Shown here: piece by piece, positions 301 to 37,059 of the stretch | How the letters are laid out: every line of letters begins with the position of its first letter | How positions within the stretch are numbered: position 1 is the first letter of the stretch | Source: a virus | Strand: one strand, 5' to 3' | UHGV virus genome: UHGV-1358930 | DNA: 64,000 nucleotides | The notes under the pieces: generated by a model | What the model was told of the DNA's origin: nothing | Seen by the model: the letters and a program-made list of their open reading frames with translations, nothing else | Database searches by the model: none | Program-made: the position numbers and the translations under genes

Positions 301-302
301 AA

Positions 303-7834: not shown

Positions 7835-7878
7835 TAGATTCTACAATAAGGCTAAGTCAAAATAAAATAAGGATCGTT

Positions 7879-7930
7879 AAATACATTGCAAGTAGATCTA
7901 TTCAAAATAACTTGCAATGTATTTATTATT
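7879..7930 (+). terminator. Perfect 15-bp inverted repeat (aaatacattgcaagt / acttgcaatgtattt, 16-nt loop) followed by ATTATTTT; left arm overlaps an AATCGTTAAATA motif
   Basis: Seen directly; strong stem-loop + T-rich tail. Confidence 0.55.
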
Positions 7931-8058
7931 TTGAGGAGATGATATAGGAAATTTGAAACGATAACATAATCAATATAAGAATACACATCAAAACCGTAAC
8001 TAACGATCTGCGCCAAGCTCGCAAAGATCGCAGCCTATCAAGAAAGGAACATTTATCA

Positions 8059-15191: not shown

Positions 15192-15768
15192 TTGTATATA
15201 TACACCATATTGTACATACAAACAATGCGACTTAGCTTGTCCTAATAGAGCTGAAGTGAATTGTTGGTTCAAACGATGCCGACTTGATATGTCAAATAAT
15301 TGCTTGCATACTAATATCCGAAATATTGAGAAAGCCGAGGATCTACTAAGTAACAAGTATGGAGAAACTGTGTGGTTTCCCACAGATAATCCTTCAGATG
15401 CAAGCGACACTATTTGCTACGTAGCTATTTGCAAATATGGTAAAGGTACTGCTCTTGGAAACGGAATATACAATCTGGATTTTGCAAAATTTATAGATAT
15501 GATCAAGGAGTCCTGGAATACGCATTTTGAAACAGATAACTTAATTCAGATGCGTGTGTGGTCTTTGTCTGCAAATTACCTAGTTATCTCAAATCTAGAT
15601 TATGTTAGATTTCAAGATTTTGAAAGTCAAACGTTGCTAAGGCTTCTGAATGATCGAAGAGATTATACAAAGACAACTGTAGTAGTTACTAGTAAAGAAC
15701 CTTTGGTCGGCAGCGGAAATTTCTTTCCTAGATTGACTTCTTTGCTAAAGGGGGTCAAGAGCAATTGA
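15184..15768 (+). CDS. Hypothetical protein (194 aa), possibly replication-associated
   Basis: Immediately precedes dnaB with overlap. Confidence 0.4.
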   Translation: MHDCIYTPYCTYKQCDLACPNRAEVNCWFKRCRLDMSNNCLHTNIRNIEKAEDLLSNKYGETVWFPTDNPSDASDTICYVAICKYGKGTALGNGIYNLDFAKFIDMIKESWNTHFETDNLIQMRVWSLSANYLVISNLDYVRFQDFESQTLLRLLNDRRDYTKTTVVVTSKEPLVGSGNFFPRLTSLLKGVKSN

Positions 15769-18188
15769 CGAATTCAGTAGAACTTCAAGTTATTTGTAAA
15801 ATTTTAACAAGTCAAGATGATTCTGAAATTGATAGGCTGTGTGCGTTTGATGAATCCTATTACGCAGTATTCAAAGATCAGATCAAATTTATTCTAGATC
15901 ATAGAGAAAAATATCATACTGTCCCAGACTTGTTTACGTTCCAAGCTCAATTCGAAGACATTGTTTTGATTGATGTAAACGAATCTGCAGATTTTTTAGT
16001 AGACGGACTTCGGAAAAACAAGCAGCAGATCATACTCTTACAAACATTCAATAAGCTATCTGAGTTAGGTTCTGCAGACGTTTCTGAAGCTTGGCAGTTC
16101 TTACAATCCCAATGCGACAAAGCTGCTCAACTTGATAATTCTAACCCGATGGATATCATCAAAGAAGCTCACAAGCGAAGTGATCAAGTTTTATCGCTAA
16201 GTAATCAAACAAGAATTCCTACAGGATTCAAAGAAGTAGATGAAACAATGTATGGAGGATTGTCAACTGTTGAAGAACTTTGTCTTGTAGTTGCTAGAAC
16301 TAACACAGGTAAAGCTCAGCCTCTTTGGAGTAATATCTTAACACCTACTGGGTGGAAGCGTATGCGAGATATTCAAGTAGGAGACATTGTATGCGGTAGA
16401 GATAATGACAATGGTAAAGTAGTTCAAATATTTCCGCAAGGTACAATTGACTACTATCGTGTAAAGTTTGATGATGGTACTTATACGGAGTGTTCTGCAG
16501 ATCATCTTTGGGAAGTTCTGGATAGTGAACGAAGGAAGCATGATAGAAAAACTTATGGTCAGTATCTTACATTGACTACTCGAGATATTCGGAATCATAT
16601 GTATCGCAGATACTCTGTTGATATGTGTGAACAAATTGAATTCGAGAGTGCTTTTGATACAGATAGTGAACTTGACGGATATTTTTTAGGAGCATTTATC
16701 GGGCATGGTAGAAATGTAGGTAACAAGCTATATATTCATTCTCTGTCCGATGTTTCAAAGCGACGTATAATTGATGCATTGTCTAAATATCGTTGTCAAT
16801 TCACAGAAAATGATCCAAATACACTCGTGATTGAGGATAAGAATGATGGTAAGCTTATCCAAAAGATGTTCGAGTACAACTTGATGAACTGCAAAGTCAT
16901 TGATAGACATATTCCGGATATATATTTTCATAGCCCTGTAAATGTTAGAAAAGCTCTGTTATCAGGTCTCTGCGATACAGATAGCACAATGTTATCAAAA
17001 AATCATAGAGGTTGGGTTTTCGTTACATCTTCAGATCAGCTTAAATCTGATTTTGTTTACATTGCTAGATCTTTAGGTGTAAAAGCAAAGGTGTCGACTG
17101 CAAGATCTGGTAGATGGGTTGACTTAGGTGTATCGCACGTTGCGAATACGTACCACAGGGTTATGTGTATCTCAAAATTCAATCCGTTTTATGGTTCACC
17201 AAATTACACAGAATTTGAACGCAGACAGGATAAAACTAAATTTAAAAATCGCAAGCGTGTTTGCAAATTCATTGATTCTATTGAATACGTAGGTAAGACG
17301 GAATGCCAGTGTATCATGGTAGACAATAAGACGCATACATATATTACAGATGATTTTATTGTCACACATAACACCTGGGTTACTACTAAGATGATGGAGT
17401 CTGCACAAGCGAATGGATTTCCTGTACTATATTATAGCCCAGAGATGCAATCTGCTTTCATTGGCACACGATTTGATACCTGGAGAGGTCACTTCCGAAA
17501 TAGCGATATTCAACGAGGTAAATACAGCGAAGACTACATTCAGTACATCAAAGACATTGTTAAAGAGGAAACTGGTGCATTTGTTGCAGAAGACAAAGAT
17601 ATGCCAGGAGGAAAAACAACTGTCAGGTCGATTGAAACTCTAGTCAAGCGACATCATATAAAGCTTGTTATCATTGATGGTCTGTCTTATATGGCAGATA
17701 CAGAAAAGTCTGATAGCGATGTTATTAAGTATAAAAATATATGTACTGGACTATTCCGAATGTCTAAAACATATGGATGTGCTGTAGTAGTATCTGTACA
17801 AGCTAATAGAGACACTAAATCTAATGTCGATGACAAAGGAGTCCCGTGGCCTGATATGTATTCGATTGAAGGCTCAGACCATCCAGGACGTATTGCAACT
17901 CAAGTATTTGCGCTTCGACAATTGTACGAAGAGCATACATTAGAGATAAAGCTGTTGAAGACTAGAAATGCAAAGAATGCAAATCCTACGTTCGCATATG
18001 TATGGGATCCAAATACAGGAAACACAGAGTTTGTTTCGGATGATGCATCGGCTGCTCCTCCTTCTGCTCCTGCACAGCCTAGCAAGTTCTCAACGCCGAC
18101 AGTGTCAGCAAAGATTGTACACACCGATATAGATGATAATCTAATCGATGCCAGTACAGATGACGATCTAGATGACGTTGAGTTTTGA
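15765..18188 (+). CDS. dnaB: DnaB-family replicative helicase interrupted by an intein in the Walker A (P-loop)
   Basis: N-extein ends 'ARTNTGK', C-extein resumes 'TWVTTK' reconstructing GxxxxGKT; downstream RecA-like fold motifs. Confidence 0.75.
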   Translation: MTNSVELQVICKILTSQDDSEIDRLCAFDESYYAVFKDQIKFILDHREKYHTVPDLFTFQAQFEDIVLIDVNESADFLVDGLRKNKQQIILLQTFNKLSELGSADVSEAWQFLQSQCDKAAQLDNSNPMDIIKEAHKRSDQVLSLSNQTRIPTGFKEVDETMYGGLSTVEELCLVVARTNTGKAQPLWSNILTPTGWKRMRDIQVGDIVCGRDNDNGKVVQIFPQGTIDYYRVKFDDGTYTECSADHLWEVLDSERRKHDRKTYGQYLTLTTRDIRNHMYRRYSVDMCEQIEFESAFDTDSELDGYFLGAFIGHGRNVGNKLYIHSLSDVSKRRIIDALSKYRCQFTENDPNTLVIEDKNDGKLIQKMFEYNLMNCKVIDRHIPDIYFHSPVNVRKALLSGLCDTDSTMLSKNHRGWVFVTSSDQLKSDFVYIARSLGVKAKVSTARSGRWVDLGVSHVANTYHRVMCISKFNPFYGSPNYTEFERRQDKTKFKNRKRVCKFIDSIEYVGKTECQCIMVDNKTHTYITDDFIVTHNTWVTTKMMESAQANGFPVLYYSPEMQSAFIGTRFDTWRGHFRNSDIQRGKYSEDYIQYIKDIVKEETGAFVAEDKDMPGGKTTVRSIETLVKRHHIKLVIIDGLSYMADTEKSDSDVIKYKNICTGLFRMSKTYGCAVVVSVQANRDTKSNVDDKGVPWPDMYSIEGSDHPGRIATQVFALRQLYEEHTLEIKLLKTRNAKNANPTFAYVWDPNTGNTEFVSDDASAAPPSAPAQPSKFSTPTVSAKIVHTDIDDNLIDASTDDDLDDVEF
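16314..17372 (+). mobile_element. DnaB intein (~353 aa), class-3-like (N-terminal Ala, Thr+1), with LAGLIDADG homing endonuclease motifs (LDGYFLGAFIGHG; KALLSGLCDTDS)
   Basis: Begins 'AQPLWSN' right after GK, ends 'FIVTHN|T'; block F Cys 'ECQCIMVD'. Confidence 0.65.
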
Positions 18189-20184: not shown

Positions 20185-21192
20185 ATGCTATATATGAATA
20201 TTGATACCATAATTGATAAACTTTCATCTCAAGGGTTTATACGCCTAAATAGGCATATAGGCGACTACTATAGCTGCTATTGCCCATTTCACAGTGATGG
20301 AAAAGAGAAAAAGCCGTCCTCTGGTATATTGCTAAGAGACCAGTATCGCAATGGACAGCACTATCCTGCTGGATTCTTTAACTGTTTCACTTGTCACCAT
20401 GCATATCAACTGGAAGAGTTCATCACAGAGCTATTGAAAGTTAATTCTATCCACATGTCTGGTAGAGATTGGCTCATCAAGAATGATCCAGATTATGATC
20501 CAGATACAGAATTTGAATATCTCTTACCTAGAGATATGATGCAGTCTGTCGTGAATTCTTTTGCATTAAAGCAGATATCTAGTAAGTCGGGAGTTCAAAA
20601 ACCTTCATTCATATCTGAGTCAGAACTTTCTAAGTATAGATACACAGTACAGTATATGTATGACCGAAAACTTACAGACACTGTGATCGACTTATTTGAC
20701 GTAGGGTTTGATGCTAATTTCGTTCCAGCAGGAAGAAAGAAATCAGTTCCATGCGTCACATTCCCGGTAAGAGATGTCCACGGAAATACGCTGTTCATCT
20801 GCAGACGATCGATTGAAGGAAAATCATTCTATCTACCGTCAAACATAGAAAAATCTGTATATGGGCTGTATGAATTACCTCAAGGATGTAAATCTGTTAT
20901 CATCGCGGAAAGCTGCTTCAATGTTCTAACTTCTTACGTTTACGGTGTACCTGCTGTAGGTCTACTAGGTACTGGTACTCCTCATCAGATTTCTCAGCTT
21001 AGAAGTTTAGGTGTAAATGAGTTTGTATTAGGATTAGATCCAGATGAAGCAGGAGATAGAGCTTGCAAGCGATTGAAACGAGCACTCGGCGATATTGCTA
21101 TTATCCGACGCATGAATGGAATACCTGAAGGAAAAGATATAAATGACCTCACCAAGTCTGAATTTTTAGACATATACAGAAGTAGAATGTGA
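20185..21192 (+). CDS. DNA primase (DnaG-like, CHC2 Zn finger + TOPRIM)
   Basis: 'CYCPFHSDGKEKKPS' Zn ribbon; TOPRIM 'IIAESCFN...LGLDPDEAGDRA'. Confidence 0.7.
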   Translation: MLYMNIDTIIDKLSSQGFIRLNRHIGDYYSCYCPFHSDGKEKKPSSGILLRDQYRNGQHYPAGFFNCFTCHHAYQLEEFITELLKVNSIHMSGRDWLIKNDPDYDPDTEFEYLLPRDMMQSVVNSFALKQISSKSGVQKPSFISESELSKYRYTVQYMYDRKLTDTVIDLFDVGFDANFVPAGRKKSVPCVTFPVRDVHGNTLFICRRSIEGKSFYLPSNIEKSVYGLYELPQGCKSVIIAESCFNVLTSYVYGVPAVGLLGTGTPHQISQLRSLGVNEFVLGLDPDEAGDRACKRLKRALGDIAIIRRMNGIPEGKDINDLTKSEFLDIYRSRM

Positions 21193-23039: not shown

Positions 23040-23747
23040 TTGGAGGATTTACAAATGGCTAAGAGAATCAGATTCAACGATATTTCCCGTTTCGACAAAA
23101 ACAACAGAAGAAGAATTGCTCATGGCTCAGATCCTATTCCGGTTGTTAGACCCTTCCGTGCAGCGTATCTGATGTTCCGTGACTATCTCGATTATGACAG
23201 ACCGCTGACTTATAATGAATGGATGAATCGTCTGGAATCAGATAAGGCAGCGGCTTTATATGTTCAGTTCTACGATCAGATTCAGCTTGCTTGGTACAAA
23301 GCAAAAAGCTTCTATGCTGTTGAAGAAGATGGCGTGTCTACAATGATGCAATATCTTATGAAGAATGTTCCTGTCATCAACAAAGACGAAAAGCGCTTCA
23401 CACCTCGTTATATATATCGTGTAGCTTACAACTGCTTGTATTGCATCTGTCATGACATCAAAGTTGATAAAGACAGATGGGAGTTAGAGAGCAGCAATAT
23501 TACATCTAATTCCGATGAAGAAGAAGTAGATGTGTTCAATTTCATTCCGTCTAATTTTGACATTGAGCGAATGATGAATGAAGAAAAATTCTGGAAGGCT
23601 ATCATGTCTCAAGACGAAGATACAATTACATATGTGGATTGCGTCATCAATCATACAAGATTTCCTGCGGGTATGAAAGCTAGAAGTCCTAAGATCATCG
23701 CAAAGTTAAAGGTAGTTCTTTCAGAACTGGCTGATGAGGAGTTCTAA
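23040..23747 (+). CDS. Hypothetical protein (235 aa)
   Basis: SD GGAGGA upstream. Confidence 0.5.
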   Translation: MEDLQMAKRIRFNDISRFDKNNRRRIAHGSDPIPVVRPFRAAYLMFRDYLDYDRPLTYNEWMNRLESDKAAALYVQFYDQIQLAWYKAKSFYAVEEDGVSTMMQYLMKNVPVINKDEKRFTPRYIYRVAYNCLYCICHDIKVDKDRWELESSNITSNSDEEEVDVFNFIPSNFDIERMMNEEKFWKAIMSQDEDTITYVDCVINHTRFPAGMKARSPKIIAKLKVVLSELADEEF

Positions 23748-24174
23748 AATGAAACGTACTATCACTCAAAGTATACGAGTAGAGCTCAGCTATCTGATGA
23801 AGCTAAACGGAAAGCCTCTATTGAATTCACATGCCTATCGAGTTGAAGCTACGATTTGCAATAATTCTAACATTGGCAGGATGATGGATTTCGAGGATAT
23901 ATCAAAACTACTGTTTGAGGCTATCCCAACGAATTCATTTCTCATTTCTACATCAAGCGAAGAAGCTGAGTTAGAAGTAGCTAAAGCGCTGAAGCAGTTT
24001 GGAGTTCCTGTAATTGTATATTCTGAAGAGCTCTGTACAGAGAACTTGTTGATGCTATTCGTCAAATCCATAAATCAAAAACTAGCAGAATATTCAGACA
24101 GTTTAAGTTCATACGAACTGGTAGAGCTTAAGCTTTGGGAAACCGATAATTATTGTGCTACTTACGTAGCATAA
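23734..24174 (+). CDS. Hypothetical protein (146 aa)
   Basis: Coupled ORF. Confidence 0.4.
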   Translation: MRSSKMKRTITQSIRVELSYLMKLNGKPLLNSHAYRVEATICNNSNIGRMMDFEDISKLLFEAIPTNSFLISTSSEEAELEVAKALKQFGVPVIVYSEELCTENLLMLFVKSINQKLAEYSDSLSSYELVELKLWETDNYCATYVA

Positions 24175-24220: not shown

Positions 24221-24931
24221 ATGGCATTCAAAACAGTAGACAGCTACAACGAAGCACGATTTGGTGGATTCTTCCTTCTTAGAAACGATGGAGATTACGC
24301 TGATGTAATCTTCATGTATAGAAGTAGAGAAGATGTACTTGTTGCAGATACACATTACATCAAGTCTGCTGACTATCAGGGATACGTTCATTGCTGTGGT
24401 AAGGGTTGTCCTGCGTGTCAGAAGGGCATCAGAGTTCAGACAAAACTGTTCATCCCTCTCTACAACATTTCCGAAGGTAAGATTGAATTCTGGGACAGAA
24501 CAATGCGATTCGAGCCGCAGCTGATGAACGATGTATTCAAGAATTTTGCTAATCCTTCCGAATATGTATTCAGAGTTACGCGACATGGCGCAGCTGGATC
24601 TATTGATACAACCTATGAGATCCAAGCTATTTCTAGAAACAACGTCATGTCCTACGCGGATATCCTTGCATCTAACAATGTAACTTCTCCTGAGTATTAT
24701 TCGGAAGTTTGCAAAGAAGTCGATAGTTTCCATCTTTCTGACATGCTAAATGAACGAGCAGATAATGTATCTACTCCTTCAACTGCTGCGTATAGCGCAA
24801 ATCTTCCGGATTATCAGATTAAGCCTAGAGCTGTTGCAACTACGTACACTGATCCAGCTCCCGCAATTGAAATTCCGGACGACAATGATTCTAGCTTAGA
24901 ATCTTTAGACGAAGACGATGTTAATTTTTGA
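24221..24931 (+). CDS. gp32-like single-stranded DNA-binding protein
   Basis: Zn motif 'HCCGKGCPACQKG' parallels T4 gp32 'H..C...CPVCQY'; acidic C-terminal tail 'EIPDDNDSSLESLDEDDVNF'; SD AGGAGG. Confidence 0.5.
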   Translation: MAFKTVDSYNEARFGGFFLLRNDGDYADVIFMYRSREDVLVADTHYIKSADYQGYVHCCGKGCPACQKGIRVQTKLFIPLYNISEGKIEFWDRTMRFEPQLMNDVFKNFANPSEYVFRVTRHGAAGSIDTTYEIQAISRNNVMSYADILASNNVTSPEYYSEVCKEVDSFHLSDMLNERADNVSTPSTAAYSANLPDYQIKPRAVATTYTDPAPAIEIPDDNDSSLESLDEDDVNF

Positions 24932-25096: not shown

Positions 25097-26365
25097 TTGA
25101 GTTTATTTACCAAGTCACAAATGGCGAAATTCAATGAAGTTGCCGAACGAAGCAAACAGCTTAACAAAGAAAAACCAAAGTCTGTAAATGTATCTACAGT
25201 AAATGCGGAATTGAAGTCGATGTCAGATTCTGTGCTAGAATACTTCAAAGACTCCCCTGCTATCTGCATTCGAACCGCTGATCAGCTACATGAATACATT
25301 GATAAATGTATCGAAGCTGGATACGCTGGTATAGATACAGAAACAACGGGACTAGACAGACAAAGAGATTACATTGTAGGCGCGTCTTTATATTATCCGG
25401 ATGGTACAGAATGTTATATTCCGATGAAACATAAGATCCCTATTTTCGAAACTCCTTACAAAAATCAACTGTCTTATGAAGAAGTAACTAAAGAATTCAA
25501 ACGACTAGAAAACAGCAACATACGACTCATTTTTGCAAATGCTGACTTCGACTTAGCAATGATCTACAAGGATCTAAAAGTTGATTTCAACGATAGATTC
25601 TATTATGATGTTATTCTTGCATGGCGTTGTTTGAAGGAGAATGAGTTACACAATGACTTGAAATTCCTTTACAATAAATATGTATTGAAAGGAAAAGGAG
25701 ATCCTAAACGTTTTAGCGATTTCTTTTCTGTAAAGCTGTTCCCATATTCTGATCCTGAAATCGCTAAATTGTACGCAGCAAACGACGCAAAAATCACATT
25801 TCAACTGTTCAAGTGGCAGCTTCCTTATGTTACAGAAAGTCATCCTAAGTGTCAGAAAGCTCACCTAGAAGCAATATCTAGACTCATTTGGAACATAGAG
25901 TTTCCACTGGTTAAAGTCTGCCAGAATATGTATAGAAGAGGTTCATACATTGATTCTAATGTTGCTAGTGTTTTGAAAAAGCGATACAGAGATGAATACA
26001 ATGTAGAAGTCAAAAAGCTACAAGACATGGTACAAAAAATCATTGATAATACGAATATAGCATATTCAGGTAAACGTCCATTTACTAGAGGAGCAGATTT
26101 CAACCCATCTTCACCTCCTCAAGTTAAATATTTGATATACAATCTACTTCAAATTCCTAAAGGATCGTCTTCTGGAACAGGTAAAGAAGTATTGAACGAA
26201 CTTAATCTGCCTGTAACAAATCAGATACTGAAGGTAAGATCTCTATCTGTACTTATCAATACATTCGTAGAGAAGCTACCAGCTGCCGCAAGTCTGGATC
26301 ATAGAATTCATGGTCAGTTCAAGCAGGTGGGTGCAGCCACGGGCAGGTTGTCTTGTGCCGAGCCT
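25097..26365 (+). CDS. polA: DNA polymerase I (family A) exon 1: 3'-5' exonuclease domain and N-terminal polymerase part, ends '...TGRLSCAEP'
   Basis: Exo I 'GIDTETTGLD'; '..ATGRLSCAEP' = TGRLSSxxP motif; ORF then runs into intron. Confidence 0.75.
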
Positions 26366-27271
26366 AAACATGATAAATCAGATTGGGCTCGTAAAATCGA
26401 GTTAATTCAGGGAAGGGTAGCAGCTTGACGCTGTGAGATAACCCTGAGCCAAGGCTCTCATATATCTACTTAGGAGGTACACGATATGAGAAAGATTCAA
26501 TTCAATGAAGAGACCATCAATGCAATTAAAAATTTTATAGAGTCTGGTCACACAATGGAAGAGACATGTAACAGATTTACGCTCAAATACGATACATTGA
26601 AACGTGTAATGTTTGAGAACAATCTGAAGCCGTATAGAGCAGATAAATCACATCCCGTTATCTTCACTAGAGATGAGGAAAACATCGTATGTAAGCTATA
26701 TTCGACAACTTCAATGACAATGAAAGATATCTGTAAAGAAGTGAAGCTACCTGATTACGCTGTGCAGAAAATACTATCGGATAATTTTTCTGAAAAATAC
26801 AGAAATGAAAGGAAAGCAAAGCTTTATAGATTGTCCAAACGGTGCGAGAATAGTCCGTGGTTTCAGAAATACGGAGCAGACTCTTCTCAGTGGGTCGGAG
26901 GCGTTGTAGACGATGGCAACGGATATGATATGATCAAAAAACCTGAGTGGTACACAGGTAGAAAGTGTTCTGATTATGTCTTTTTACATACAGTTGTGAT
27001 GTGTGAGCACTTAGGTCTAACTGAACTTCCTAAAGGATATGTAGTACATCATATCGACGGAAACAAGAAAAATAACACAATAGATAATTTAGCGTTGATG
27101 ACCGTGTCAGGACACAGTAAGTTACATTTGTTGATGAAGAATCTATGCAAGGTGCAGAGACTATCCGAACAGGAGTAAGCGAAAGCTGAAATGCTAGACA
27201 ATGGTTGTGTATGACATCTATCATTCCTACTAGTTATACAAGCCATCGAAGATATAGTCCACAAATAATTG
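26366..27271 (+). mobile_element. Group I intron 1 in polA carrying an HNH homing endonuclease ORF
   Basis: Exon ends in U, intron ends in G; canonical S element AAGATATAGTCC at 27249-27260; exon 2 resumes 'NLMNIP'. Confidence 0.65.
26486..27178 (+). CDS. Intron-encoded HNH homing endonuclease (I-HmuI-like)
   Basis: 'GYVVHHIDGNKKNNTIDNLALMTVSGHSKLH' HNH motif; SD AGGAGG. Confidence 0.75.
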   Translation: MRKIQFNEETINAIKNFIESGHTMEETCNRFTLKYDTLKRVMFENNLKPYRADKSHPVIFTRDEENIVCKLYSTTSMTMKDICKEVKLPDYAVQKILSDNFSEKYRNERKAKLYRLSKRCENSPWFQKYGADSSQWVGGVVDDGNGYDMIKKPEWYTGRKCSDYVFLHTVVMCEHLGLTELPKGYVVHHIDGNKKNNTIDNLALMTVSGHSKLHLLMKNLCKVQRLSEQE

Positions 27272-27349
27272 AACCTGATGAATATCCCGTCGCATGCGGT
27301 TGATATTCGACATATGTTCAGAGCAACTCCCCAGAAAGATTACACAGTT
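27272..27349 (+). CDS. polA: polA exon 2a (26 aa: NLMNIPSHAVDIRHMFRATPQKDYTV; contains motif A Asp 'DYT')
   Basis: Aligns to PolA 'NLQNIPVRT...IRRAF...DYSQ'; junction inferred. Confidence 0.5.
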
Positions 27350-28710
27350 GAATCAGAAGTAGATGACAATAACGAAGTATCATTCGTTATTGATAATGGA
27401 CATGAATTACAAACATCTGAAGGATATAAGCCAGTAGTAGATATTGTTCCCGGAGATGTTGTAATGTTTGATGATAAGGAGGTATCAAGCTTAATTGTCA
27501 AAGAAGTTGAAACTAAAGGTACGTCAACCCGAGTACGTTTTGATGTCATCTGACTACAGTTTACGAAAGTTGGCTGTAGTAAAACCTTGTTAAGTCGATG
27601 AATACTTGATAGATAATTCTATAACCTAAATACAAGAATTGGTTCGACTATCAAGTTAATATCGAGCAAAATAGGACCTTTTATCTTGTTGAGTATAGTC
27701 TCTTAAAAATTGGAGGTATTCGACATGATAATATATAAAATATACAATGATGTTAATTCTAAGCTTTACATCGGTCAAACAACAAAATCGCTTGAAGAAA
27801 GAATAAATGGGCATCATTCTTCTATGATAGGAGGGCAAGATACTCATCTATATCGAGCAATGCGAAAATACGGATGGGAAAAGTTTCATTTTGAAATAAT
27901 ATCCAGAGCTGATAGTCAAGATGAATTAAATTATCTTGAAGAGTATTATATCCGTAAGTTAGATACAATAAGAAATGGATATAACATGGCTCCAGGAGGA
28001 TCAAAAAATGTTATGTACTCATCTATCGTAGCAGCTAAACATGATGCTAAAATGAGAACAGATTCTGTAAGAAAGAAAATATCAGAATCAATGAAAAAGT
28101 CTTATGCTTCACGCGGTGGTCCCTCAGAAGAACACAGGAAGCATCTTTCACAAGCCAAGAAGGAATATTATCAAACTCCTGAAAGCGAATTGACACGAGA
28201 AAGGTTTAGAAAGTCATTCAAGCTATCTCCTGAGCATTATAAGGCACTGAATGACGCGAAAAACAAAAGTGTATATTGCATAAATGAATCTAATGAAGTA
28301 GTTGCAAAATTTGATAGGGTCAAAGATGCAGCTATTTGGTGGATGTCTACTGGGTACAAAGTTAAACATTATGATCAACTTTGTGACAAAATAAAAGAGT
28401 CCAGCAAGCAAAATAGATTCATAAAGGGGCTAAAATGGTTCTATTGTGTGTAGAGACTATCGAAAGCTAGAAATTGACATTCAGAGAAATCTGTAAATGA
28501 TTTTAGGTAAATCAGGTCAGTTGAGATAACCAAGTGAGTAGAGTACAGCTCAAGTGAGTTAGCATCTGCATGATATTAGTGTAGAGTAAGCCTATTGAAT
28601 GGAAATTCAAGGGTTCATTTGAATTGGTGATAGATTCAAATGTTCAAGAGATAGTCCGGCACTCTTGGTGACAAGAGAAATGTTTAACGAACATTCAACT
28701 AATTAAGCAG
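27350..28710 (+). mobile_element. Group I intron 2 in polA carrying a GIY-YIG endonuclease ORF
   Basis: S-like element AGAGATAGTCCGG 28647-28660; shares GAGATAACC element with intron 1. Confidence 0.5.
27710..28453 (+). CDS. Intron-encoded GIY-YIG homing endonuclease
   Basis: 'IYKIYNDVNSKLYIGQTTKSLEERINGH' GIY-YIG motif + R..E. Confidence 0.75.
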   Translation: MEVFDMIIYKIYNDVNSKLYIGQTTKSLEERINGHHSSMIGGQDTHLYRAMRKYGWEKFHFEIISRADSQDELNYLEEYYIRKLDTIRNGYNMAPGGSKNVMYSSIVAAKHDAKMRTDSVRKKISESMKKSYASRGGPSEEHRKHLSQAKKEYYQTPESELTRERFRKSFKLSPEHYKALNDAKNKSVYCINESNEVVAKFDRVKDAAIWWMSTGYKVKHYDQLCDKIKESSKQNRFIKGLKWFYCV

Positions 28711-28911
28711 CAAGAACCAAAAATTTGCGCATACGTAGGTAACATCAAAGAACTTTGCGAAGGTTTTGCAAACGGGAAAGATGCTTACGCGATGATCGCA
28801 GCTGTTTCTTTCAATAAGTCATATGAAGAATGCTTAGAGTTTCACCCTGTTACGCATGAGTATCAGCCTGAAGGTAAAGCAAGAAGAACAGAATCGAAGT
28901 CCGTACTTTTG
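28711..28911 (+). CDS. polA: polA exon 2b (67 aa, ends '...ARRTESKSVLLG' = motif B RRxxKxxNFG)
   Basis: 'QEPKICAYVGNIKELCEGFANGKDAYAMIAAVSF' aligns to Bsu PolI 'IELRLLAHIADDDNLIEAFQRDLDIHTKTAMDIF'; not annotated in ORF track (no start codon). Confidence 0.5.
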
Positions 28912-29936
28912 GGTGAACGTAAAAGTTATGCCCCATATTTCAAGTTCTCGCATTAAATTTGCTTGAAATATGAAAATCTTGTGAACTACATTGCTCATAG
29001 GTGTTGAGAACACGATTAGGATATACAGGAAATGGTATATAGGTTCTCAGCTAACTGGGGATACTCAAAAGAGTGAATCCAGTGCCAAGCATCAAGTCTT
29101 CACGGAGTTCTATACCTTACATCATATCGGAGGTGTAGAACTTGAACAATTATTCATCATACATCATAACTTGTAAGGACAATGGAATGCAATACATCGG
29201 AATAACTTCTATTGGTTTAAGAAATAGGTGGTATGCACATGTTTCATGTTCTCGAAATTTAAGTAGTAATAATCCAATGTATAAGGATATGAAAGAATTT
29301 GGAGAATCCTCTTTTGAAATACATGAAATTGAATCTGGGTTATCAAAAGAAGAAGCCGATGCGCGTGAAAAGGAACTAATAAAGATTTATAATACAAAGT
29401 GGCCTAACGGATACAACTTAACAGACGGTGGATTCAAGAATGATGGACAGTTATTACCAGAAGGTCGATCGGCTAGAATATCTTGTAAGCTACGCGGAGT
29501 TCCTAAATCAAGCGAGCATAGATTGCATCTAAGTCAGTCTAGGATTGGAAAATACAAAGGAGCAGACAACGCCTTCTATGGTAAACATCATTCTGATGAA
29601 ACTATATTGAATCTTCAGAAGCTATTATCCCACGGAAAGGTTTATCAGTTAGACAAAAAATCTAAATTAGTTGTAGGCACATTTGATAGCGCAGCGTTTG
29701 CAGCAAGATACATATCTGAAAACAAATTATCTTCTGCAAAAATAGATACTATAAATGCTAGATTATGCGAAGTTATGAACAATGATAATCGTTCCGCATA
29801 CGGTTTTATGTGGAGACGCGATGAAGGTCAATCGACTAAGTATTAGAAGAGAAAATAGAGCTACTCTTCGAAGCGCAAGACATTAAGCGAGATAATGATG
29901 ATATAGTCAGCGCCACAAGTGATTGTGGACTAAGTG
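28912..29936 (+). mobile_element. Group I intron 3 in polA (splits motif B) carrying a second GIY-YIG endonuclease ORF
   Basis: Exon 2b ends ..GGT (U), intron ends ..AAGTG (G); S-like GATATAGTCAG at ~29900. Confidence 0.55.
29142..29846 (+). CDS. Intron-encoded GIY-YIG homing endonuclease (second copy, paralog of 27710)
   Basis: 'YIITCKDNGMQYIGITSIGLRNRWYAH' GIY-YIG; C-terminal region similar to 27710 ORF. Confidence 0.75.
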   Translation: MNNYSSYIITCKDNGMQYIGITSIGLRNRWYAHVSCSRNLSSNNPMYKDMKEFGESSFEIHEIESGLSKEEADAREKELIKIYNTKWPNGYNLTDGGFKNDGQLLPEGRSARISCKLRGVPKSSEHRLHLSQSRIGKYKGADNAFYGKHHSDETILNLQKLLSHGKVYQLDKKSKLVVGTFDSAAFAARYISENKLSSAKIDTINARLCEVMNNDNRSAYGFMWRRDEGQSTKY

Positions 29937-31433
29937 GTACTTTACGGACGTTCTATTCCTTCAATTGCTGATCAGTTATATGGCAAACGAGACGATATGA
30001 CAGGTGAGCAGAAACTAAAAGCAGCTCAGAAGGTGTTTGACGCAGTTATGGGAGCTTTTCCTGGACTGAAAAATCTAATGATCGGGTCTCAAGATTTTGC
30101 AAGAAAGCACGGATATACGGAAACAATTTTAGGTAGAAGACGACATATTCCAGATATGCAGCTGCCTGAATTTGAATTTAAGGCGATGAAAGGATATGTT
30201 AATCCTGATATTGACCCGACAGATATCACTACGCTGGAAAACAAAGATGAGATCCCCGAAAGAATTGTAAACGAGCTTTACAAAGAATTTAAAACGTACA
30301 AATACTACGGTCAAATCGCAAAGCGTACAAAGCAGCTATATGAAGAAGATCATATTAGGGTGATAAATAATAGACCTAAGATAAATGATGCAACTCGTCA
30401 GTGTGTTAACTGTGTTGACTTCGATACTGAGATACTAACAACAGACGGATTCAAAAGATATGACGAGGTATCTATAGGCTACACGATTATTTCATATAAC
30501 TTAGCTAAAGACTGCTTAGAGGAAGATGCCATTGAAGGTATTCATATCGATGATAGAGATGTTAAGGGATATGAATTCAATGCGCCGGAGCTATCTTGCG
30601 TATGCACAGATAATCACAGATGGGTTATTCAAGATACTCTGTATGAACACCCTGAAATCGTGACAGCTGAAGAATACGTCTGTGATTATGGTTGTCTATT
30701 CCCGATTTTAGCATCCGCTGGATCTGAATTACCTGGATCGTTTGGAGAATATTCTCAAGCAGAGTTCGGTGTATTAGCATATCTACTTTACTACAATGCA
30801 ATCAGGTTAATTGAAAACGGTACTACGTGGCTAACATTCAAGTGGAATAGCCCTAATCAGAAATCGTTTGATTCACTTATTCAGTTTCTTCGTAGCACAA
30901 AGTTTGATTATCAGATAAGTAGCACAGGTGATCCAGTATGCACAGAAGTAAAGATTGCATACAATACATTTTTATTCGATGTGTATACTAGCCTCAAGGG
31001 CAACAAACTAACCAATGAGTTTGTAAGCTTATTATCCGGTGAGCAAGCTTCTCAGCTTTGGTGGACATTTGCATACCTGAAAAATCCGGATTTAAAGCTA
31101 GATGAGAATATTTCAATTGTTTTTGACAGCTTGTCTGACGCAGATGTATTTCAGCATCTCTGCTATCGAGCAGGACATTTTAGCAGATGCATTCCGCTAA
31201 AGGATATGATTGATGCGGTAGATGAGCCACACATTGAAGACAGAATTCAGGAGCCTTCTAACAATCAATATGTAGTTACTACATATCAGCATAACACTGT
31301 CAATATGTGGGACAAGCGATATGTAAAACGAACAACATTACACGGCTGCTGGTGCGTAACTACTAACAACGGAACATGGGTTGCTAGACGAAATGGTTCT
31401 GTATTTCTCACAGGCAACTCTATTATTCAGGGT
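29937..31433 (+). CDS. polA: polA exon 3 ('VLYGRSIPSIADQLYGK...' motif B continuation, fingers/palm) containing an intein; ends 'NSIIQG'
   Basis: 'RRHIPDM' like PolA 'GRRRYVPD'; 'TRQCVN|..|SIIQG' = ERMAFNMPVQG motif. Confidence 0.65.
30412..31418 (+). mobile_element. Intein (~335 aa) in polA between '...RQCVN' and 'SIIQG' (coordinates +/- 2 nt)
   Basis: Starts 'CVDFDTEILTTDG' (block A), block B 'CTDNHRW', ends 'VFLTGN|S'; removal restores N(S)IIQG(S)AAE motif. Confidence 0.6.
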
Positions 31434-31791
31434 AGATACTTGCTGCCCTTATCTATCTAACCTTATTGCTCAAGGGTGTGCTCATATATTTGAGTGCTAA
31501 CGGTATCAGTGACATAAGACTGCTTCACGAAGCGAGAGAGATGTGAAGCTCTTCTACTAGTAGAAGATCCATAGACGAATCAGCTGACTAAGAAAGCCTA
31601 AGGTCTAATTATTCAATTAGATAGCTGGTAATACCGTGTCAAGTGCACCTTATACAGGGTGTAAAGATGTATCGACTAGCTCGCGTTGTTGCGAGGGTAG
31701 GTCTGAAGACGAGCTGCAGACTGAAATGGTAGACTGCAATTATTTTGCAGAAGATATAGTCAGGTTGTATGGAAACATGCATTGCTGCACG
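31434..31791 (+). mobile_element. Group I intron 4 in polA, ORF-less (~358 nt), splitting 'QG|SAAE'
   Basis: GC-richer structured segment; S element AAGATATAGTCAGG at 31751-64; exon ends in U, intron ends in G. Confidence 0.55.
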
Positions 31792-32301
31792 AGCGCGGCG
31801 GAACTTACAAAGATGGCTATTTTGAAGCTTGAGAACAACAAGGAATGGCAGAGAATTGGAGGAAGATTACTGGTACCTATCCACGATGAATTGCTGACAG
31901 AAGTCCCTGCACGTTATGCTGAGGAGGGTGCAAAAATCCTATCGGATTCAATGTGTGGAGCTGCAGATTTCATGCCGTTTCCAATTACATGTGACGTTGA
32001 GACTACTTATCGATGGTATGGTATGGCATATCCTTGTCCTTACAAGAAACCGAATTCTATCGACACGAATGATGAAGATGAGATAAAGTGGATTCAGTAT
32101 CATCTAAGAGAATCCGAATACCTGCTGCCAGTACTGAAGGACGAAAACGGTGAAAAACCTAGAGGTGATGCAGCCAAGGGTGTAAACGGTGTTAGAACCC
32201 CTGAAATGGAATCTGCTATTGAAGATTATATTAAATCTCGACATATTTTAAAAGAAGATTTCATTGATACTATTGATCGAGAGGTTGACATCGGCGGATA
32301 G
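31792..32301 (+). CDS. polA: polA exon 4 ('SAAELTKMAILKL...VPIHDELLTEVP' motif C)
   Basis: Matches PolA 'TAADLMKLAM...VHDELVLE'. Confidence 0.7.
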   Translation, partial: SAAELTKMAILKLENNKEWQRIGGRLLVPIHDELLTEVPARYAEEGAKILSDSMCGAADFMPFPITCDVETTYRWYGMAYPCPYKKPNSIDTNDEDEIKWIQYHLRESEYLLPVLKDENGEKPRGDAAKGVNGVRTPEMESAIEDYIKSRHILKEDFIDTIDREVDIGG

Positions 32302-32390: not shown

Positions 32391-33518
32391 ATGAAATTTA
32401 CTGTAAGCACAAAACCGTTTTCAGAAGGTTTGAACCTCGCAATTGTCAACTCCAATGTATCTAAGTTCAGCCAGAAAAGTAACATTGCTCAGGTGACTGT
32501 AAAGAATGGTATGCTTGTCGTGAATCTTGAATGCGACAATGTCAAGACAGAAATTAGATTTAAAGGTGGAGTAACAGAAGAAAACAGCAGCATTGCAACT
32601 GTAAGCTGCCTGGTCTTGAAGCAGCTTGTGTCTACATTCGACTCTGCTGTAACTGTTGTAGAATTTGATGAGAACGGACTTATTTTAGTTTCTGGTAGGT
32701 CAAGATTTGTATTGCCTGATATCATCAAAAATACGGACATGGAACTAGACAAACCAGATATGGATTTGACACATCTTGTATCTAATCCGGTTCCGATTAA
32801 CAAAACAAACTGGAAGTTTGTTGATGATCATCAGATGTTTGCCCTTAGCATGTCATTTGTAAATCCGATCTATACGAGATGCTGGGTAGGAGCTGATTCA
32901 GATGTACTCGTAGGCGACATGGATAACAGTATCTTCACACACTCTAACAAGGGAACTTTGGGTGAAACTTGCTTGCTTAGGCCTGATATCATCAACATGT
33001 TTGTAGCATTGCCAGAGGGTGCTACTATTGGAAAACTTTCCAACAGCTACATTGTGCATACCAATACAGACGCATATGACATCTATTCTGAAGTAGTACC
33101 AGAATATGAAGATGATCCAGCTTTCGGCAGTTATAATTCTGAAATCATTATGGATATGATGCAGAAAGATATGGACAATGCTATCAAAGTGAATACATCC
33201 TCTATTCTTAAGGCAATCAATCAGTCAGATTTGTTGTCTACTGAAGATAAGTCTAGTAAAGCACTTTTCATCGATGTAGATGGTTCTGTGCTTACTGTAG
33301 CTGATGACAATGTTGACTGTAAAGTAGACGTAGAAGGTAATCCGGCTATCAAATACAATATCAAGATGAAAGCACCTAACTTCAAGTCTGCGATTTCTAA
33401 CATTGATAGTGACTCTGTATATATTTCCCCTGTCACTAATGATGAGAGTGAAGAGCTTGTAGGATTGATGATGTGGACAGATAACATGTCTATTCTAATT
33501 GCAGGAGCTGATCAGTAA
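32391..33518 (+). CDS. dnaN: DNA polymerase III beta sliding clamp (DnaN-like)
   Basis: 'MKFTVSTKPF..' DnaN-like N-term; 'LVSGRSRFVLPDI' matches DnaN 'LVRSGRSRFSLSTLP'; 375 aa. Confidence 0.65.
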   Translation: MKFTVSTKPFSEGLNLAIVNSNVSKFSQKSNIAQVTVKNGMLVVNLECDNVKTEIRFKGGVTEENSSIATVSCLVLKQLVSTFDSAVTVVEFDENGLILVSGRSRFVLPDIIKNTDMELDKPDMDLTHLVSNPVPINKTNWKFVDDHQMFALSMSFVNPIYTRCWVGADSDVLVGDMDNSIFTHSNKGTLGETCLLRPDIINMFVALPEGATIGKLSNSYIVHTNTDAYDIYSEVVPEYEDDPAFGSYNSEIIMDMMQKDMDNAIKVNTSSILKAINQSDLLSTEDKSSKALFIDVDGSVLTVADDNVDCKVDVEGNPAIKYNIKMKAPNFKSAISNIDSDSVYISPVTNDESEELVGLMMWTDNMSILIAGADQ

Positions 33519-34294
33519 TGGCGTTTAGGTCAGCAGTTGCTATTCGTGCGTCTAGATTTAATTCTGCTACAAGCTGTAATTTTCTTGAGGATTATGAGGA
33601 ATATATAGAGAAGAAATCCGAATGTAGAAATATCGAGACTCCTAGTAAAACTTTTGCACCTTCATCTTTTAGATGTATGCGAAAAAGCTGGTTCAGACTT
33701 AGAGGAGTCGATCCAGACAAAGATAGAAAAGCTGATGTAATGTTAGATTTCGCTGCTGATATGGGAACTGCGTGCCATAGAATGATTCAGTCAAATCTTT
33801 CTGACATGCTCAAAGAGAATTGGGTGCCTGTTGAGAAATTCTTGGCAGACACTCATAATCCTCATCAGTATCAATTAACTACATCTGAAGACAGCTTAGA
33901 GACAAAAGTCGAATTTTTTGATATTCCTATCAGATTTGCAGTTGACGGTATACTCAGATTAAACAACGAATATTATCTCTTAGAAATAAAAACAAGCGAA
34001 TTTTTGTCATTTAGTAATTTGACGCAGTGGAAATCTGAGCACGAAGACCAAGTTAAATGCTACATGACTTTGTTAAGGCTGAAACATTGTTTGTTCCTAT
34101 ATCAGGATAGGCAGTATGGTCAGCTAAAGTGCTATGAGCTTACTCTATCTGACAGAGATAAAAAAGACGTAGAAGACAAATTTAAAACTGTGATGAGGTG
34201 TGTTGAAACATGTATTGCTCCAGAACGTCTCCCAAAGGGAGATAAATGGTGCTCTATGTGTGAATACAAGAAATCATGTGACAGCTGGGGGTGA
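33518..34294 (+). CDS. PD-(D/E)xK exonuclease (Cas4/RecB-like) with C-terminal 4-Cys cluster
   Basis: 'DGILRL...YYLLEIKTS' D..EIK motif; 'C..ER...WCSMCEYKKSC' Cys cluster. Confidence 0.55.
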   Translation: MAFRSAVAIRASRFNSATSCNFLEDYEEYIEKKSECRNIETPSKTFAPSSFRCMRKSWFRLRGVDPDKDRKADVMLDFAADMGTACHRMIQSNLSDMLKENWVPVEKFLADTHNPHQYQLTTSEDSLETKVEFFDIPIRFAVDGILRLNNEYYLLEIKTSEFLSFSNLTQWKSEHEDQVKCYMTLLRLKHCLFLYQDRQYGQLKCYELTLSDRDKKDVEDKFKTVMRCVETCIAPERLPKGDKWCSMCEYKKSCDSWG

Positions 34295-35313
34295 AGATAT
34301 TGCCATCATTAGCAGTAAAGTATAGACCAGCAACATTTTCAGATTTAACTGAACAATCTACTATATGCGAGATACTTGAAAACATAACGAATTTTGATCC
34401 AATTCCGGTACGCAATTTCTTATTTGTAGGTCCCAGCGGGACGGGAAAGACGACGCTCGGGCGAGCATTAGCTCATAAACTAAATCATAATGATTCAAAT
34501 ATCATTGAAGTAGACGCAGCGTCTAACAATGGTGTAGATAGTGTTCGTCAGCTCATTTCTCAGATGCAAACATATCCAGTAGGAAGTAAGTATAAAATTT
34601 TTATACTTGACGAGTGCCACGCATTTAGTCAAGCAGCCTGGCAGATATTTTTGAAAGTCCTAGAAGATGTACCAGCAAACACTATCAACGTATTTTGTAC
34701 GACCAATCCGGAAAAAATTCCCGCAACTATACTATCACGTGTACAAACATTTCAGCTATCTAAGATAAGCTTATCTGGTATCACTAACCGTCTTAAGTAT
34801 GTACTAGATAGCGAAATATCTGAAGGTAAGGATATCCGATATGATATGGACGCAGTAGGATATATCGCAAAGCTTGCAAACGGCGGTATGAGAGATGCAT
34901 TAACGTTGTTAGACAAGGCTCTGACATACAGCAATGATATATCGCTAGAAAATATTTCAAAGTCTTTGAATATTCCAAATTACGATGATTATTTTGAGTT
35001 ATTGAATGCGTGTGCAAAGAAGGACAACGTCAACATTACACGGATTGTAAACAACGTATATAATTCTGGTGTAAATTTTGTCAGCTGGTTCACTGGATTT
35101 CATTCGTTCATTATCAACATAATGAAATACATCTTTCTACAGGACATCAAAGAAACAATGATACCTTCGTACTACGAAGATAAGATCTCGAAGTATAGTA
35201 TCAAACATTCTGCTGTATGTCTTAAGCTTGCAAGCAAAGTGTTGAAAATGAACAACGAATTGAAGACAGCTGTATATCTACAAGAAGTTGCTCTAACATA
35301 TCTTTGCTCTTGA
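34291..35313 (+). CDS. dnaX: Clamp loader ATPase (DnaX tau/gamma-like AAA+)
   Basis: Walker A 'VGPSGTGKTTLG', Walker B 'FILDECH', sensor 'TILSRVQTF' (SRC-like). Confidence 0.6.
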   Translation: MKILPSLAVKYRPATFSDLTEQSTICEILENITNFDPIPVRNFLFVGPSGTGKTTLGRALAHKLNHNDSNIIEVDAASNNGVDSVRQLISQMQTYPVGSKYKIFILDECHAFSQAAWQIFLKVLEDVPANTINVFCTTNPEKIPATILSRVQTFQLSKISLSGITNRLKYVLDSEISEGKDIRYDMDAVGYIAKLANGGMRDALTLLDKALTYSNDISLENISKSLNIPNYDDYFELLNACAKKDNVNITRIVNNVYNSGVNFVSWFTGFHSFIINIMKYIFLQDIKETMIPSYYEDKISKYSIKHSAVCLKLASKVLKMNNELKTAVYLQEVALTYLCS

Positions 35314-35892: not shown

Positions 35893-37059
35893 ATGTCAGC
35901 ATACGACGACATCATAAACAGAAAAAAGAAGGAATGGGCAGCCGAAGATTTGATGGAAGGAGCCAAGCATTCTAGAGGAAAGAAAATTCCGTTTTCTTCA
36001 CCTTTGATGAACTGGGCTACATACGGAGGCATTCCAAGAGATAAAATTACGGAATTCTTTGGTGAGCCGTCAGGGGGTAAGTCGACTTCGGCTGTAGACA
36101 TTTGCAAGAATGCTTATCCTATCTTCAAAGAAGAGTATGAAGCTAGAATGAATGAGCTACGTGACATTGCAAAGACTGGAAACAAATCCGCAGCAAGCGA
36201 GCTAGAAGATTTAGAGGAAACCGGACCGAAGAAAATCCTATACATTGACCTAGAACATTCATTTGATAGCGCATGGGCAGACACAATCGGTATAAAACCA
36301 GATGAAATTGAAATCATGCAGCCGCCAGATGTTGTCGCAGAGGACATTCTCCAGACTGTTCAAGATTTGATAAGTACTGGAGAAGTCGGACTAGTTGTAC
36401 TTGATTCTATTCCATCGCTTGTACCTAGAGCTGAACTAGAGAAGAAATATGGAGAACGAACTGTAGCATCACTGGCTGGATTGCTAACTATTTTCTTTAG
36501 AAAGATTGTTCCTATGTTAACTCGATATGGGTGCACACTCATTTTTATCAATCAGATTCGTCAGAACATGGATAATCCATATGTAGTAAAGACTCCAGGA
36601 GGCGAAGCTCCTAAGTTCTATGCGTCTCTTCGTATCTTGTTCCAAATTGGACAGCCTGTTGACTTCTTAGGGAACGAACTTCCAAAGAGTTCGGAAAACC
36701 CAGCTGGATACATTGTAAATGCAAAGATATCTAAGCAGAAAAGCGCACCGAACGATCGTCGAAATGCTTCATATTTCTTGATGTGTCAATCTGGTATCCG
36801 AGAAGATATGGACTTTGCGAATCTTGCTATGAAGAAGTACGGCATCATTCGCAAAGGAGGTGCTTGGTTTGGTTTTGTCGATCCATATACTGGTGAAGCT
36901 CTTGAAGAAGACGGCAAGATTGTAAAAGTAAACGGTATGACAAAAGTTTATGAGTACTTAAAGAGTAATCAAGCTTACTATCAGAAATTAAAGAAATATA
37001 TCATTGATGATATAAACGGGACAGACGAAGCAGTGTCTCGAGAATCTGATTTAATTTAA
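35893..37059 (+). CDS. recA: RecA-family recombinase
   Basis: Walker A 'FGEPSGGKSTSA' in RecA position; 'LVVLDSIPSLVP' Walker B region; 388 aa. Confidence 0.6.
   Translation: MSAYDDIINRKKKEWAAEDLMEGAKHSRGKKIPFSSPLMNWATYGGIPRDKITEFFGEPSGGKSTSAVDICKNAYPIFKEEYEARMNELRDIAKTGNKSAASELEDLEETGPKKILYIDLEHSFDSAWADTIGIKPDEIEIMQPPDVVAEDILQTVQDLISTGEVGLVVLDSIPSLVPRAELEKKYGERTVASLAGLLTIFFRKIVPMLTRYGCTLIFINQIRQNMDNPYVVKTPGGEAPKFYASLRILFQIGQPVDFLGNELPKSSENPAGYIVNAKISKQKSAPNDRRNASYFLMCQSGIREDMDFANLAMKKYGIIRKGGAWFGFVDPYTGEALEEDGKIVKVNGMTKVYEYLKSNQAYYQKLKKYIIDDINGTDEAVSRESDLI

Follow-up and report, generated by a model that had tools for sequence, protein, structure and literature searches.

The family-A DNA polymerase gene of the virus genome UHGV-1358930 is most likely interrupted six times within 7.2 kb, as read from its sequence and that of its relatives: by four group I introns, by an intein and by a break that divides it into two genes. 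We analyzed one stretch of this genome, 64,000 nucleotides (nt) long (hereafter, the window), in which the gene occupies 25097-32301 of the plus strand, and compared it with related loci (L numbers) and related proteins (P numbers). Two cistrons that overlap on a single transcript, the adjacent polA-N and polA-C, would together encode the polymerase, a reading in which we have good confidence; with expression as two polypeptides, the count of interruptions would most likely be six rather than the five listed in an earlier note on this DNA. The four introns would have to leave the RNA by self-splicing and the intein would have to leave the protein by protein splicing. That the gene carries an unusually dense load of selfish elements is supported.

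The polymerase gene and its exons

Judged by alignment, 25097-32301 is one family-A polymerase, colinear with uninterrupted relatives. Pfam DNA_pol_A_exo1 and DNA_pol_A matched the pieces at 25097-26428, 29934-31460 and 31636-32301, and a protein alignment of the conceptual product was colinear over the full length with uninterrupted 854-aa homologues at 80-81% identity. The protein database holds many of these 854-aa homologues, along with 1195-aa forms bearing an intein and 704-aa forms that end at the site of the fourth intron (intron D). Megablast of the polymerase region against cultured phages returned no match, the best cultured PolA matches were ~30-35% identical, and a search of cultured phages in 'distant' mode matched only ~70-170 nt of intron D, in Enterocloster phages. 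The segments that would make up the two cistrons are as follows.

25097-26365, plus strand: polA-N exon N1, TTG start, 423 codons; 3'-5' exonuclease domain and N-terminal part of the polymerase
27272-27553, plus strand: polA-N exon N2; NLMNIPSHAVDIRHMFRATP, then a 73-aa tail (27332-27550) and the stop codon TGA (27551-53)
27477-27497, plus strand: Shine-Dalgarno (SD) sequence AAGGAGG (27477-83) and TTG start (27495-97) of polA-C, inside the tail coding sequence
27495-27560, plus strand: polA-C exon C1, 22 codons; a head, MSKKLKLKVRQP, then EYVLMSSDYS (motif A strand and catalytic Asp); ends in U
28708-28914, plus strand: polA-C exon C2, 69 codons, QQEPK...KSVLLG; colinear with homologues, borders taken from intron-less alleles
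29937-31433, plus strand: polA-C exon C3, 499 codons including the intein; colinear with homologues on either side of it
31792-32301, plus strand: polA-C exon C4, 169 codons and stop; motif C (HDE), Pfam DNA_pol_A, colinear with homologues

Exon N1 ends in U, is colinear with residues 1-423 of P0001 and is matched by Pfam DNA_pol_A_exo1 and DNA_pol_A; its open frame runs on into exon N2. The polA-N product (25097-26365 joined to 27272-27553) has 516 aa. The polA-C product (27495-27560, 28708-28914, 29937-31433 and 31792-32301) would be a precursor of 759 aa, or 423 aa once the intein has been removed.

The earlier note had proposed a single PolA read from five exons. The identity of the polymerase and its colinearity were borne out by the homologue alignment, the best evidence for what that note basically claimed; the one frame through five exons was not, as motif A lies in another frame. 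Its junction 26365|27272, the exon start at 29937 and the junction 31433|31792 are correct, and three of its eight splice coordinates (27349 and 28911 as exon ends, 28711 as an exon start) are wrong, as seen in contigs 95-99% identical to the window. These contigs lack the second and third introns (B and C) and join 27560 to 28708 and 28914 to 29937, which places intron B at 27561-28707 and intron C at 28915-29936 in place of 27350-28710 and 28912-29936. What had been taken for the second intron is a real intron with a GIY-YIG gene, 27561-28707, wrongly fused with a 199-nt coding stretch, 27332-27530. The rule that each exon ends in U broke down at 28911, which is a G, and holds for all of the corrected exon ends.

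The resulting 849-aa protein is wrong around catalytic motif A, and one of its junctions is also one codon off. Aligned to PolA, that spliced product was colinear and five residues short at motif A: homologues read IRHMFRATPGYVMLGSDFSQQEPK, and the join DYTV|QEPK is shorter by those five residues. Three-frame translation places motif A, EYVLMSSDYS, at 27531-27560 in the +1 frame, where uninterrupted homologues have GYVMLGSDFS; DYTV|QEPK is a chance look-alike. The five-exon frame, with intron 2 at 27350-28710, does have some appeal, since its join is in frame, D-Y-T-x-Q-E-P-K resembles DYSQQEPK, and positions 27349 and 28710 are U and G. Against it, exactly 27561-28707 is missing, and 27350-27560 is retained, in four contigs 95-99% identical to the window. 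The join also leaves the essential strand that precedes the catalytic Asp five residues short when the far better EYVLMSSDYS is present, and the P1 pairing (ACUACAGU with GCUGUAGU) fits 27560 and not 27349. Read against the intron-less alleles, the five-exon model is already refuted, and we give it next to no weight.

A break between the polymerase halves

Between RATP (27329-31) and EYV (27531) lie 199 nt (3n+1), and motif A follows in the +1 frame. After RATP the upstream frame continues for 73 codons, QKDYTVESEV...RVRFDVI, to a stop at 27551-53; many relatives also have insertions here. As these frames read, 27332-27530 is coding sequence and not intron, and the break would fall in a surface loop, after IRHMFRATP and before the beta-strand bearing the catalytic Asp of motif A. 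In the window, polA-N and polA-C overlap by 59 nt, with no gene and no free-standing endonuclease gene between them.

Of the 37 loci found when viral contigs were scanned for the pattern IRHMFRAT, 19 were unbroken, 15 were broken with a tail of 65-80 aa, one (L053) had an in-frame insertion and two were unrelated, so the break is common to ~15 of the 35 sampled loci of the family. At the equivalent place, every split locus examined (11 of 11) has an AAGGAGG-like SD sequence 5-12 nt before an ATG, GTG or TTG start, which sits 8-13 codons before the resumed xYV(M/L)xSSDYS sequence. In the Logan contigs L064 and L065 an independent gene caller began the C-half gene at exactly the TTG position, giving the 59-nt overlap. 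Elsewhere the halves are parted by an HNH gene (L049, also L025), a 160-aa open reading frame (ORF; L048), a 70-aa ORF (L045) or 2.1 kb (L037). Halves that stand apart with genes between them therefore rule out frameshifting or bypassing as the general mechanism, and make an intron unnecessary.

A HMMER scan for the tail in 1.84 billion representative proteins found it in 139 representatives of 50%-identity clusters, at the protein C-terminus in most of them. In-frame, internal versions occur in L053, P0203 (944 aa), P0197 and P0208, with insertions from 76 aa (L053) up to ~105 aa (P0208). The tails of related loci are conserved as protein and not as DNA, and a close variant, P0132, has a tail with an in-frame deletion of one codon. 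Between the window and L054 the tail has 0.30 nonsynonymous differences per site (pN) and 0.71 synonymous (pS), or a dN/dS of ~0.18. The tail is under purifying selection.

The 199-nt stretch, which is longer in relatives, might instead be a fifth intron of an unrecognized type that restores one frame. Its length is 3n+1 in the split loci of the overlapping type that were checked (199 nt in the window and L017, 208 nt in L019), the site is conserved while the size varies, and L049 has an HNH gene there, as introns often do. Borders of the form C|...G| could also be drawn at 27332|27333 and 27531|27532. The minimum free energy z-score of -2.2 might be added, although the bona fide intron D scores -1.4, so this measure does not discriminate and was not used. 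Against an intron, the stretch is almost wholly coding and under purifying selection in the upstream frame, it has in-frame indels, and relatives keep in-frame versions of 76 to ~105 aa. It also lacks the GACUA/UAGUC core elements and a 5' U; each split locus examined has a downstream SD and start, needless for an intron; and in L045 and L048 the genes between the halves are not endonuclease genes. As a small group I intron the stretch was rejected, there being no frame-restoring pair of borders with a 5' U and a 3' G and no core motif. We regard a fifth intron as very unlikely.

A single polypeptide might also arise by translational bypass, with take-off at the CCC Pro codon 27329-31 and landing at the CCC 27528-30, or by a +1 frameshift that joins the tail to the C-half within a 56-nt overlap, much like the in-frame relatives. 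A Pro codon stands at both borders in nearly all loci compared, in-frame fused versions exist, and the +1-frame overlap is common to the window, L054, L040, L052 and L057. T4 gene 60 hops 50 nt; a 199-nt hop would be four times that, and no stop codon follows the take-off site. For a frameshift, there is no slippery sequence in 27495-27550, and the SD lies at least 12 nt upstream, the wrong spacing for +1 stimulation. Neither mechanism is possible in L045, L048, L049 and L037, where the halves are 0.2-2.1 kb apart with genes between, and we think either one highly improbable for the window.

Decay of the gene, with the break as a disabling mutation, would account for the broken frame and for the degenerate endonuclease motifs of the intein. 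The same architecture nevertheless recurs in deeply diverged lineages, as well as in several contigs, assembled independently, that are 95-99% identical to the window; the catalytic motifs are all intact, the exons share 81% identity with intact homologues, purifying selection acts on the tail and the start signals are conserved. No second polA was found among the scanned ORFs of the window, most of its ORFs being unscanned. A pseudogene is scarcely credible.

The tail and the head may form one Hint-like domain

As the sequences align, the beta-rich 73-aa tail of polA-N and the 12-aa head of polA-C would be two parts of one domain of ~76-105 aa, set into the loop that precedes the motif A strand, with the break falling ahead of the last strand of the domain. 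We read them as one domain because some relatives carry the insertion in frame. AlphaFold2 modeled the tail alone with a predicted local distance difference test (pLDDT) score of 65. For the tail joined to the head, the pLDDT was 85 and the predicted template modeling score (pTM) 0.71, and KLKLKVRQ of the head and KDYTVESE, the first tail segment, became strands. This joined model, a chimera on a shallow alignment with no alignment support for the head, was one beta domain whose best structural matches were inteins (Hint-like fold).

The residues of protein splicing are missing. Among the lineages compared, tail and head lack a conserved position-1 nucleophile, the T..H motif and a terminal Asn, and have neither Cys, Ser nor Thr at +1. 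RATP is followed by Q, S, P, A, K or E according to lineage, the heads close with ..(T/S/H/Q)P, after which comes E, A, Y or P, and the borders of the inserted domain both end in (T/S)P. A Cys or Ser with an acidic residue just before it is conserved 7-10 residues past RATP in most tails and in-frame insertions (TVE-S-EVDD at 27350-27370 in the window; also L052, L057, L045 and P0203). In the window it is Ser451 of polA-N; other lineages have Cys. This Cys/Ser may be a relic of the position-1 nucleophile of an intein.

Replication genes broken by split inteins have been described as 'fractured genes' (Dassa et al. 2009, PMC2677866), and tail and head could be an active, atypical split intein of that kind that ligates the halves by protein trans-splicing. 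The Hint-like fold, the conserved Cys/Ser near the start of most tails and an endonuclease gene that separates the halves in L049, as happens in fractured genes (PMC2677866), would agree with this. Likewise, a phage-like replication enzyme comes in two pieces with Hint-fold pieces on the broken ends, and the C-half has its own translation signals. The window differs in that its pieces lack every splicing residue, come to ~85 aa together and belong to halves that overlap by 59 nt, and in that its relatives retain the complete domain as a permanent in-frame insertion; for these reasons ligation is not expected. More specifically, the first residue past RATP is variable, there is no T..H of block B, the head has no Asn end, no Cys, Ser or Thr stands at +1, and L037 and L053 have no Cys/Ser in the tail. 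The smallest inteins have ~130 aa, well above the ~85 aa of tail plus head. Trans-splicing of this kind seems to us a slim prospect.

On the most economical reading, and without ligation, the strand of the head would complete the beta-sheet of the tail, and the halves would reassemble non-covalently, an association that resembles the pairing of split-intein fragments. Whether such strand complementation holds the halves together we judge to be evenly balanced. Somewhat more tentatively, the ~85-aa tail plus head may be a domesticated Hint fossil that has lost its splicing chemistry and now serves as a non-covalent clasp for a two-subunit polymerase. A search of one literature library found no precedent for a natural, non-splicing clasp derived from a Hint domain.

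Essential replication enzymes in two polypeptides that need reassembly, some with mobile endonuclease genes, are known from other phages. PMC2677866 summarizes the NrdA of Aeh1, split by the HNH gene mobE, and T4-like gp43 polymerases in two cistrons, with no intein; split DNA polymerases, including splits of family A, are noted in OM43 phages (PMC10580990). Unlike these, the window has its break within an added, conserved beta domain that is the apparent supplier of the interface. We found no description in the literature of a family-A polymerase split at the loop before motif A.

Four group I introns

The introns and their ORFs are as follows; the earlier note had rightly named three introns with homing-endonuclease ORFs (one HNH, two GIY-YIG, confirmed by Pfam) and a fourth without an ORF. 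The two GIY-YIG proteins, paralogous according to that note, are 27% identical over their full length.

26366-27271, plus strand: very probable group I intron A, 906 nt; the endonuclease ORF falls in the P6 region
26486-27178, plus strand: HNH homing-endonuclease ORF in intron A, 230 aa (Pfam HNH_3, E=8e-13)
27561-28707, plus strand: group I intron B, 1147 nt
27710-28453, plus strand: GIY-YIG homing-endonuclease ORF in intron B, 247 aa (Pfam GIY-YIG, E=2.4e-10)
28915-29936, plus strand: group I intron C, 1022 nt; the ORF falls in the P6 region
29142-29846, plus strand: GIY-YIG (+NUMOD3) homing-endonuclease ORF in intron C, 234 aa (Pfam GIY-YIG, E=7e-11; NUMOD3 weak)
31434-31791, plus strand: group I intron D, 358 nt, ORF-less (RF00028, 23.9 bits, E=0.006)

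All four have a U at the end of the exon, a P1 that places a U.G pair at the corrected splice site, an adjoining P10 and a final G, in agreement with the earlier claim that every intron ends in G. In each, GACUA lies 70-200 nt 5' of (A/G)AUAGUC, and the two represent the P7 strands and the J8/7 consensus. The core was checked by the P7 pairing and the J8/7 consensus. The S element that the earlier note placed near each 3' end is present as exact GATATAGTC in A, C and D, and in intron B as a close variant, GAGATAGTC. The exact 9-mer has three copies in the 64 kb, all on the plus strand and 12-30 nt before the 3' ends of A, C and D. With one mismatch allowed, it is not enriched in the 64 kb (24 observed, 21.6 expected), and the information lies in the three exact copies and their positions alone.

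In intron A, the exon sequence GAGCCU pairs with the internal guide sequence (IGS) GGGCUCG at 26385 over 7 bp with U.G at the splice site, 7 of 8 P10 positions are paired, and the last base is G. The 5' strand of P7, GACTA, is at 27159 and GATATAGTCC at 27251; by reading, UAACCCUGAGCCAAGG resembles the P4-P6 consensus of RF00028. The HNH ORF is called as a gene in near-identical contigs, and L017 runs straight through the site. Because of P1, P10, P7, J8/7, the P4-P6-like UAACCCUGAGCCAAGG, the HNH gene and the absence from L017, we call A a group I intron, very probably correctly; for B, C and D the assignment from sequence looks secure.

Intron B is missing with exact borders from L017, L063, L064 and L065. 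Its P1 is 8 bp (ACUACAGU with the IGS GCUGUAGU at 27573) and its P10 4 bp; GACTA is at 28455, GAGATAGTCC at 28648, and the last base is G. An ORF-less homologue of it in L014 scores 25.8 bits with RF00028 (E=1.3e-4). Intron C is missing with exact borders from L063-L065. It has the IGS GCCCC at 28930, GACTA at 29834 and GATATAGTC at 29900, with a P1 of 4 bp (a weaker alternative exists) and a P10 of 3+3 bp. Trimmed of its ORF, intron C is 58% identical, with long conserved core blocks, to the ORF-less intron that L022 has at this site; the L022 intron scores 45.3 bits with RF00028 (E=1.7e-10), and the 3' part of intron C itself 17.3 bits in E-value mode.

Intron D pairs AGGGU with the IGS GCCCU at 31445 (5 bp) and, in P10, AGC with GCU (counted as 4 bp); GACTA is at 31674, GATATAGTC at 31753, and the last base is G. 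The 704-aa relatives end at its site, and the 854-aa homologues lack it. In L063 (8207-8932; Logan ERR13898532_333), L006 and L007, intron D has an extra segment of ~0.7 kb with a GIY-YIG ORF, between the positions of window 31652 and 31658. The ORF-less form in the window could be either a deletion derivative or an uninvaded form.

Guanosine-dependent self-splicing would be expected of introns A-D. Group I introns with HNH or GIY-YIG endonucleases are known in the DNA polymerase genes of phages such as SPO1 and Bastille. The earlier comparison with a single intron in SPO1-group phages is outdated, as polymerase genes of Bastillevirinae have two and up to three introns (PMC11878797), and PMC11878797 cites three for Twort orf142. 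As in those phages, the introns of the window lie in conserved polymerase motifs and vary in presence among close relatives, their endonuclease ORFs occupy peripheral loops and extend into the P7 core, and they have P1/P10 guide pairing and the J8/7-P7 consensus AAGAUAUAGUC. Unlike them, the window locus combines four introns with an intein and a gene break, its phage lineage is uncultured, and all four of its introns stay below the Rfam threshold.

In L062 (Enterocloster phage CB473P3, OP172757), a DnaE-type Pol III alpha gene at 94-5556 lies in three pieces, all annotated 'hypothetical protein', with an I-HmuI-like ORF in the first gap; the second gap holds DNA that matches the 5' part of window intron D at 72-85% identity. 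Judged by sequence, these gaps resemble unannotated group I introns that belong to the same family but interrupt another polymerase gene.

Inteins in the polymerase and in related loci

30411-31418, plus strand: intein of 336 aa in exon C3, in frame between RQCVN and SIIQGSAA, with degenerate LAGLIDADG motifs

The earlier note had recognized this intein, and we confirmed it as CVDFD...LTGN|S in the NSxxQGSAAD motif. Cys1, T66..H69 of block B (TDNH), Asn336 and Ser+1 are invariant across the four inteins at this site (the window, P0040, P0051 and P0111), and relatives either have or lack an intein there. The window intein is ~30% identical to those of relatives whose exteins are 81% identical. 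It has no Pfam match, and in a profile search of PDB its sole match, which was not significant, was an intein (E=0.096); P0111 matched Pfam LAGLIDADG_3 at 22.9 bits (cut-off 22.5). The window intein resembles LAGLIDADG inteins of replication proteins in its in-frame position in the catalytic motif NSxxQGSAAD, its Cys1, T..H, terminal Asn and +1 Ser, its sporadic occurrence and the LAGLIDADG domain in relatives. It is unlike typical ones in its degenerate motifs, its penultimate Gly in place of His, and its low identity to the other copies at the site. The endonuclease is probably dead because both LAGLIDADG motifs are degenerate, and the splicing residues are intact.

L017 (IMGVR_UViG_3300029032_000001, ~99% identical to the window) has at ~7243-8436 a canonical LAGLIDADG intein of 398 aa, VGAA|CIVGNS...GTPNHP...FLGMYHADGS...NGMISHN|TGRLS, nine codons upstream of its vacant intron A site; this intein site is also occupied in P0197 and P0172. 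Near-identical phages carry different selfish elements at neighboring sites, given the intein in L017 and intron A in the window.

Points that weigh against the two-cistron, four-intron reading

Several observations count against the interpretation given above. None of the introns reaches the RF00028 gathering threshold (50 bits) in the window; the scan that the earlier note had suggested did find group I matches, all of them sub-threshold. At gathering, Rfam found only tRNAs in nine related loci. Intron A has no RF00028 match at all, E-value mode included. The large ORF inserts and the divergent peripheral elements probably depress the scores. The TTG start of polA-C in the window, 12 nt past its SD, is weaker than the signals of relatives, and the conserved Cys/Ser of the tail could hint at the splicing chemistry dismissed above. 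Splicing, separate translation and association of the subunits are all things that we infer.

The surrounding replication module

The polymerase lies within a replication module, with a Toprim primase-like ORF (20185-21192), a PTPS/QueD-like ORF (23734-24174), a clamp loader (34291-35313) and RecA (35893-37059). The ORFs at 24221-24931 and 32391-33518 have no Pfam match, and the window has no tRNA genes. An 807-aa DnaB-like helicase ORF (15765-18188, plus strand) matches Pfam Hom_end, an intein-type homing endonuclease, at residues 383-448, which probably marks another intein in the module. The clamp-loader gene of L063 (11566-12276; a relative 95-98% identical where aligned) is called as 755 aa, against 340 aa in the window, with a weak LAGLIDADG_3 match, and may carry an intein.

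Implications for the phage family

The locus would unite known kinds of interruption, namely polymerase-gene introns, inteins and broken genes, and would add to them a Hint-like, chemically dead interface. The introns, the intein and the endonuclease genes would be independently mobile parasites, and intron and intein content varies among phages 95-99% identical to the window at sites only a few codons apart. The family thus offers a natural system for the study of homing and of competition among selfish elements. Gene callers and Rfam defaults see only fragments at this locus, while the corrected exon map yields a usable polymerase sequence, and related cultured phages have apparent unannotated introns in polymerase genes labeled 'hypothetical'.

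The phage family preserves a series that runs from no insertion, through an in-frame loop domain and an overlapping two-cistron split, to halves parted by homing-endonuclease or other genes, and the in-frame, overlapping and widely separated forms permit direct comparison. If the Hint-like tail and head truly hold the halves together without ligation, they would be a natural module for split-protein association. If so, the clasp would also bear on gene breakage and on the birth or death of split inteins, a question raised in PMC2677866, and the series would be a natural archive of gene breakage by mobile elements and of the origin or decay of split Hint domains.

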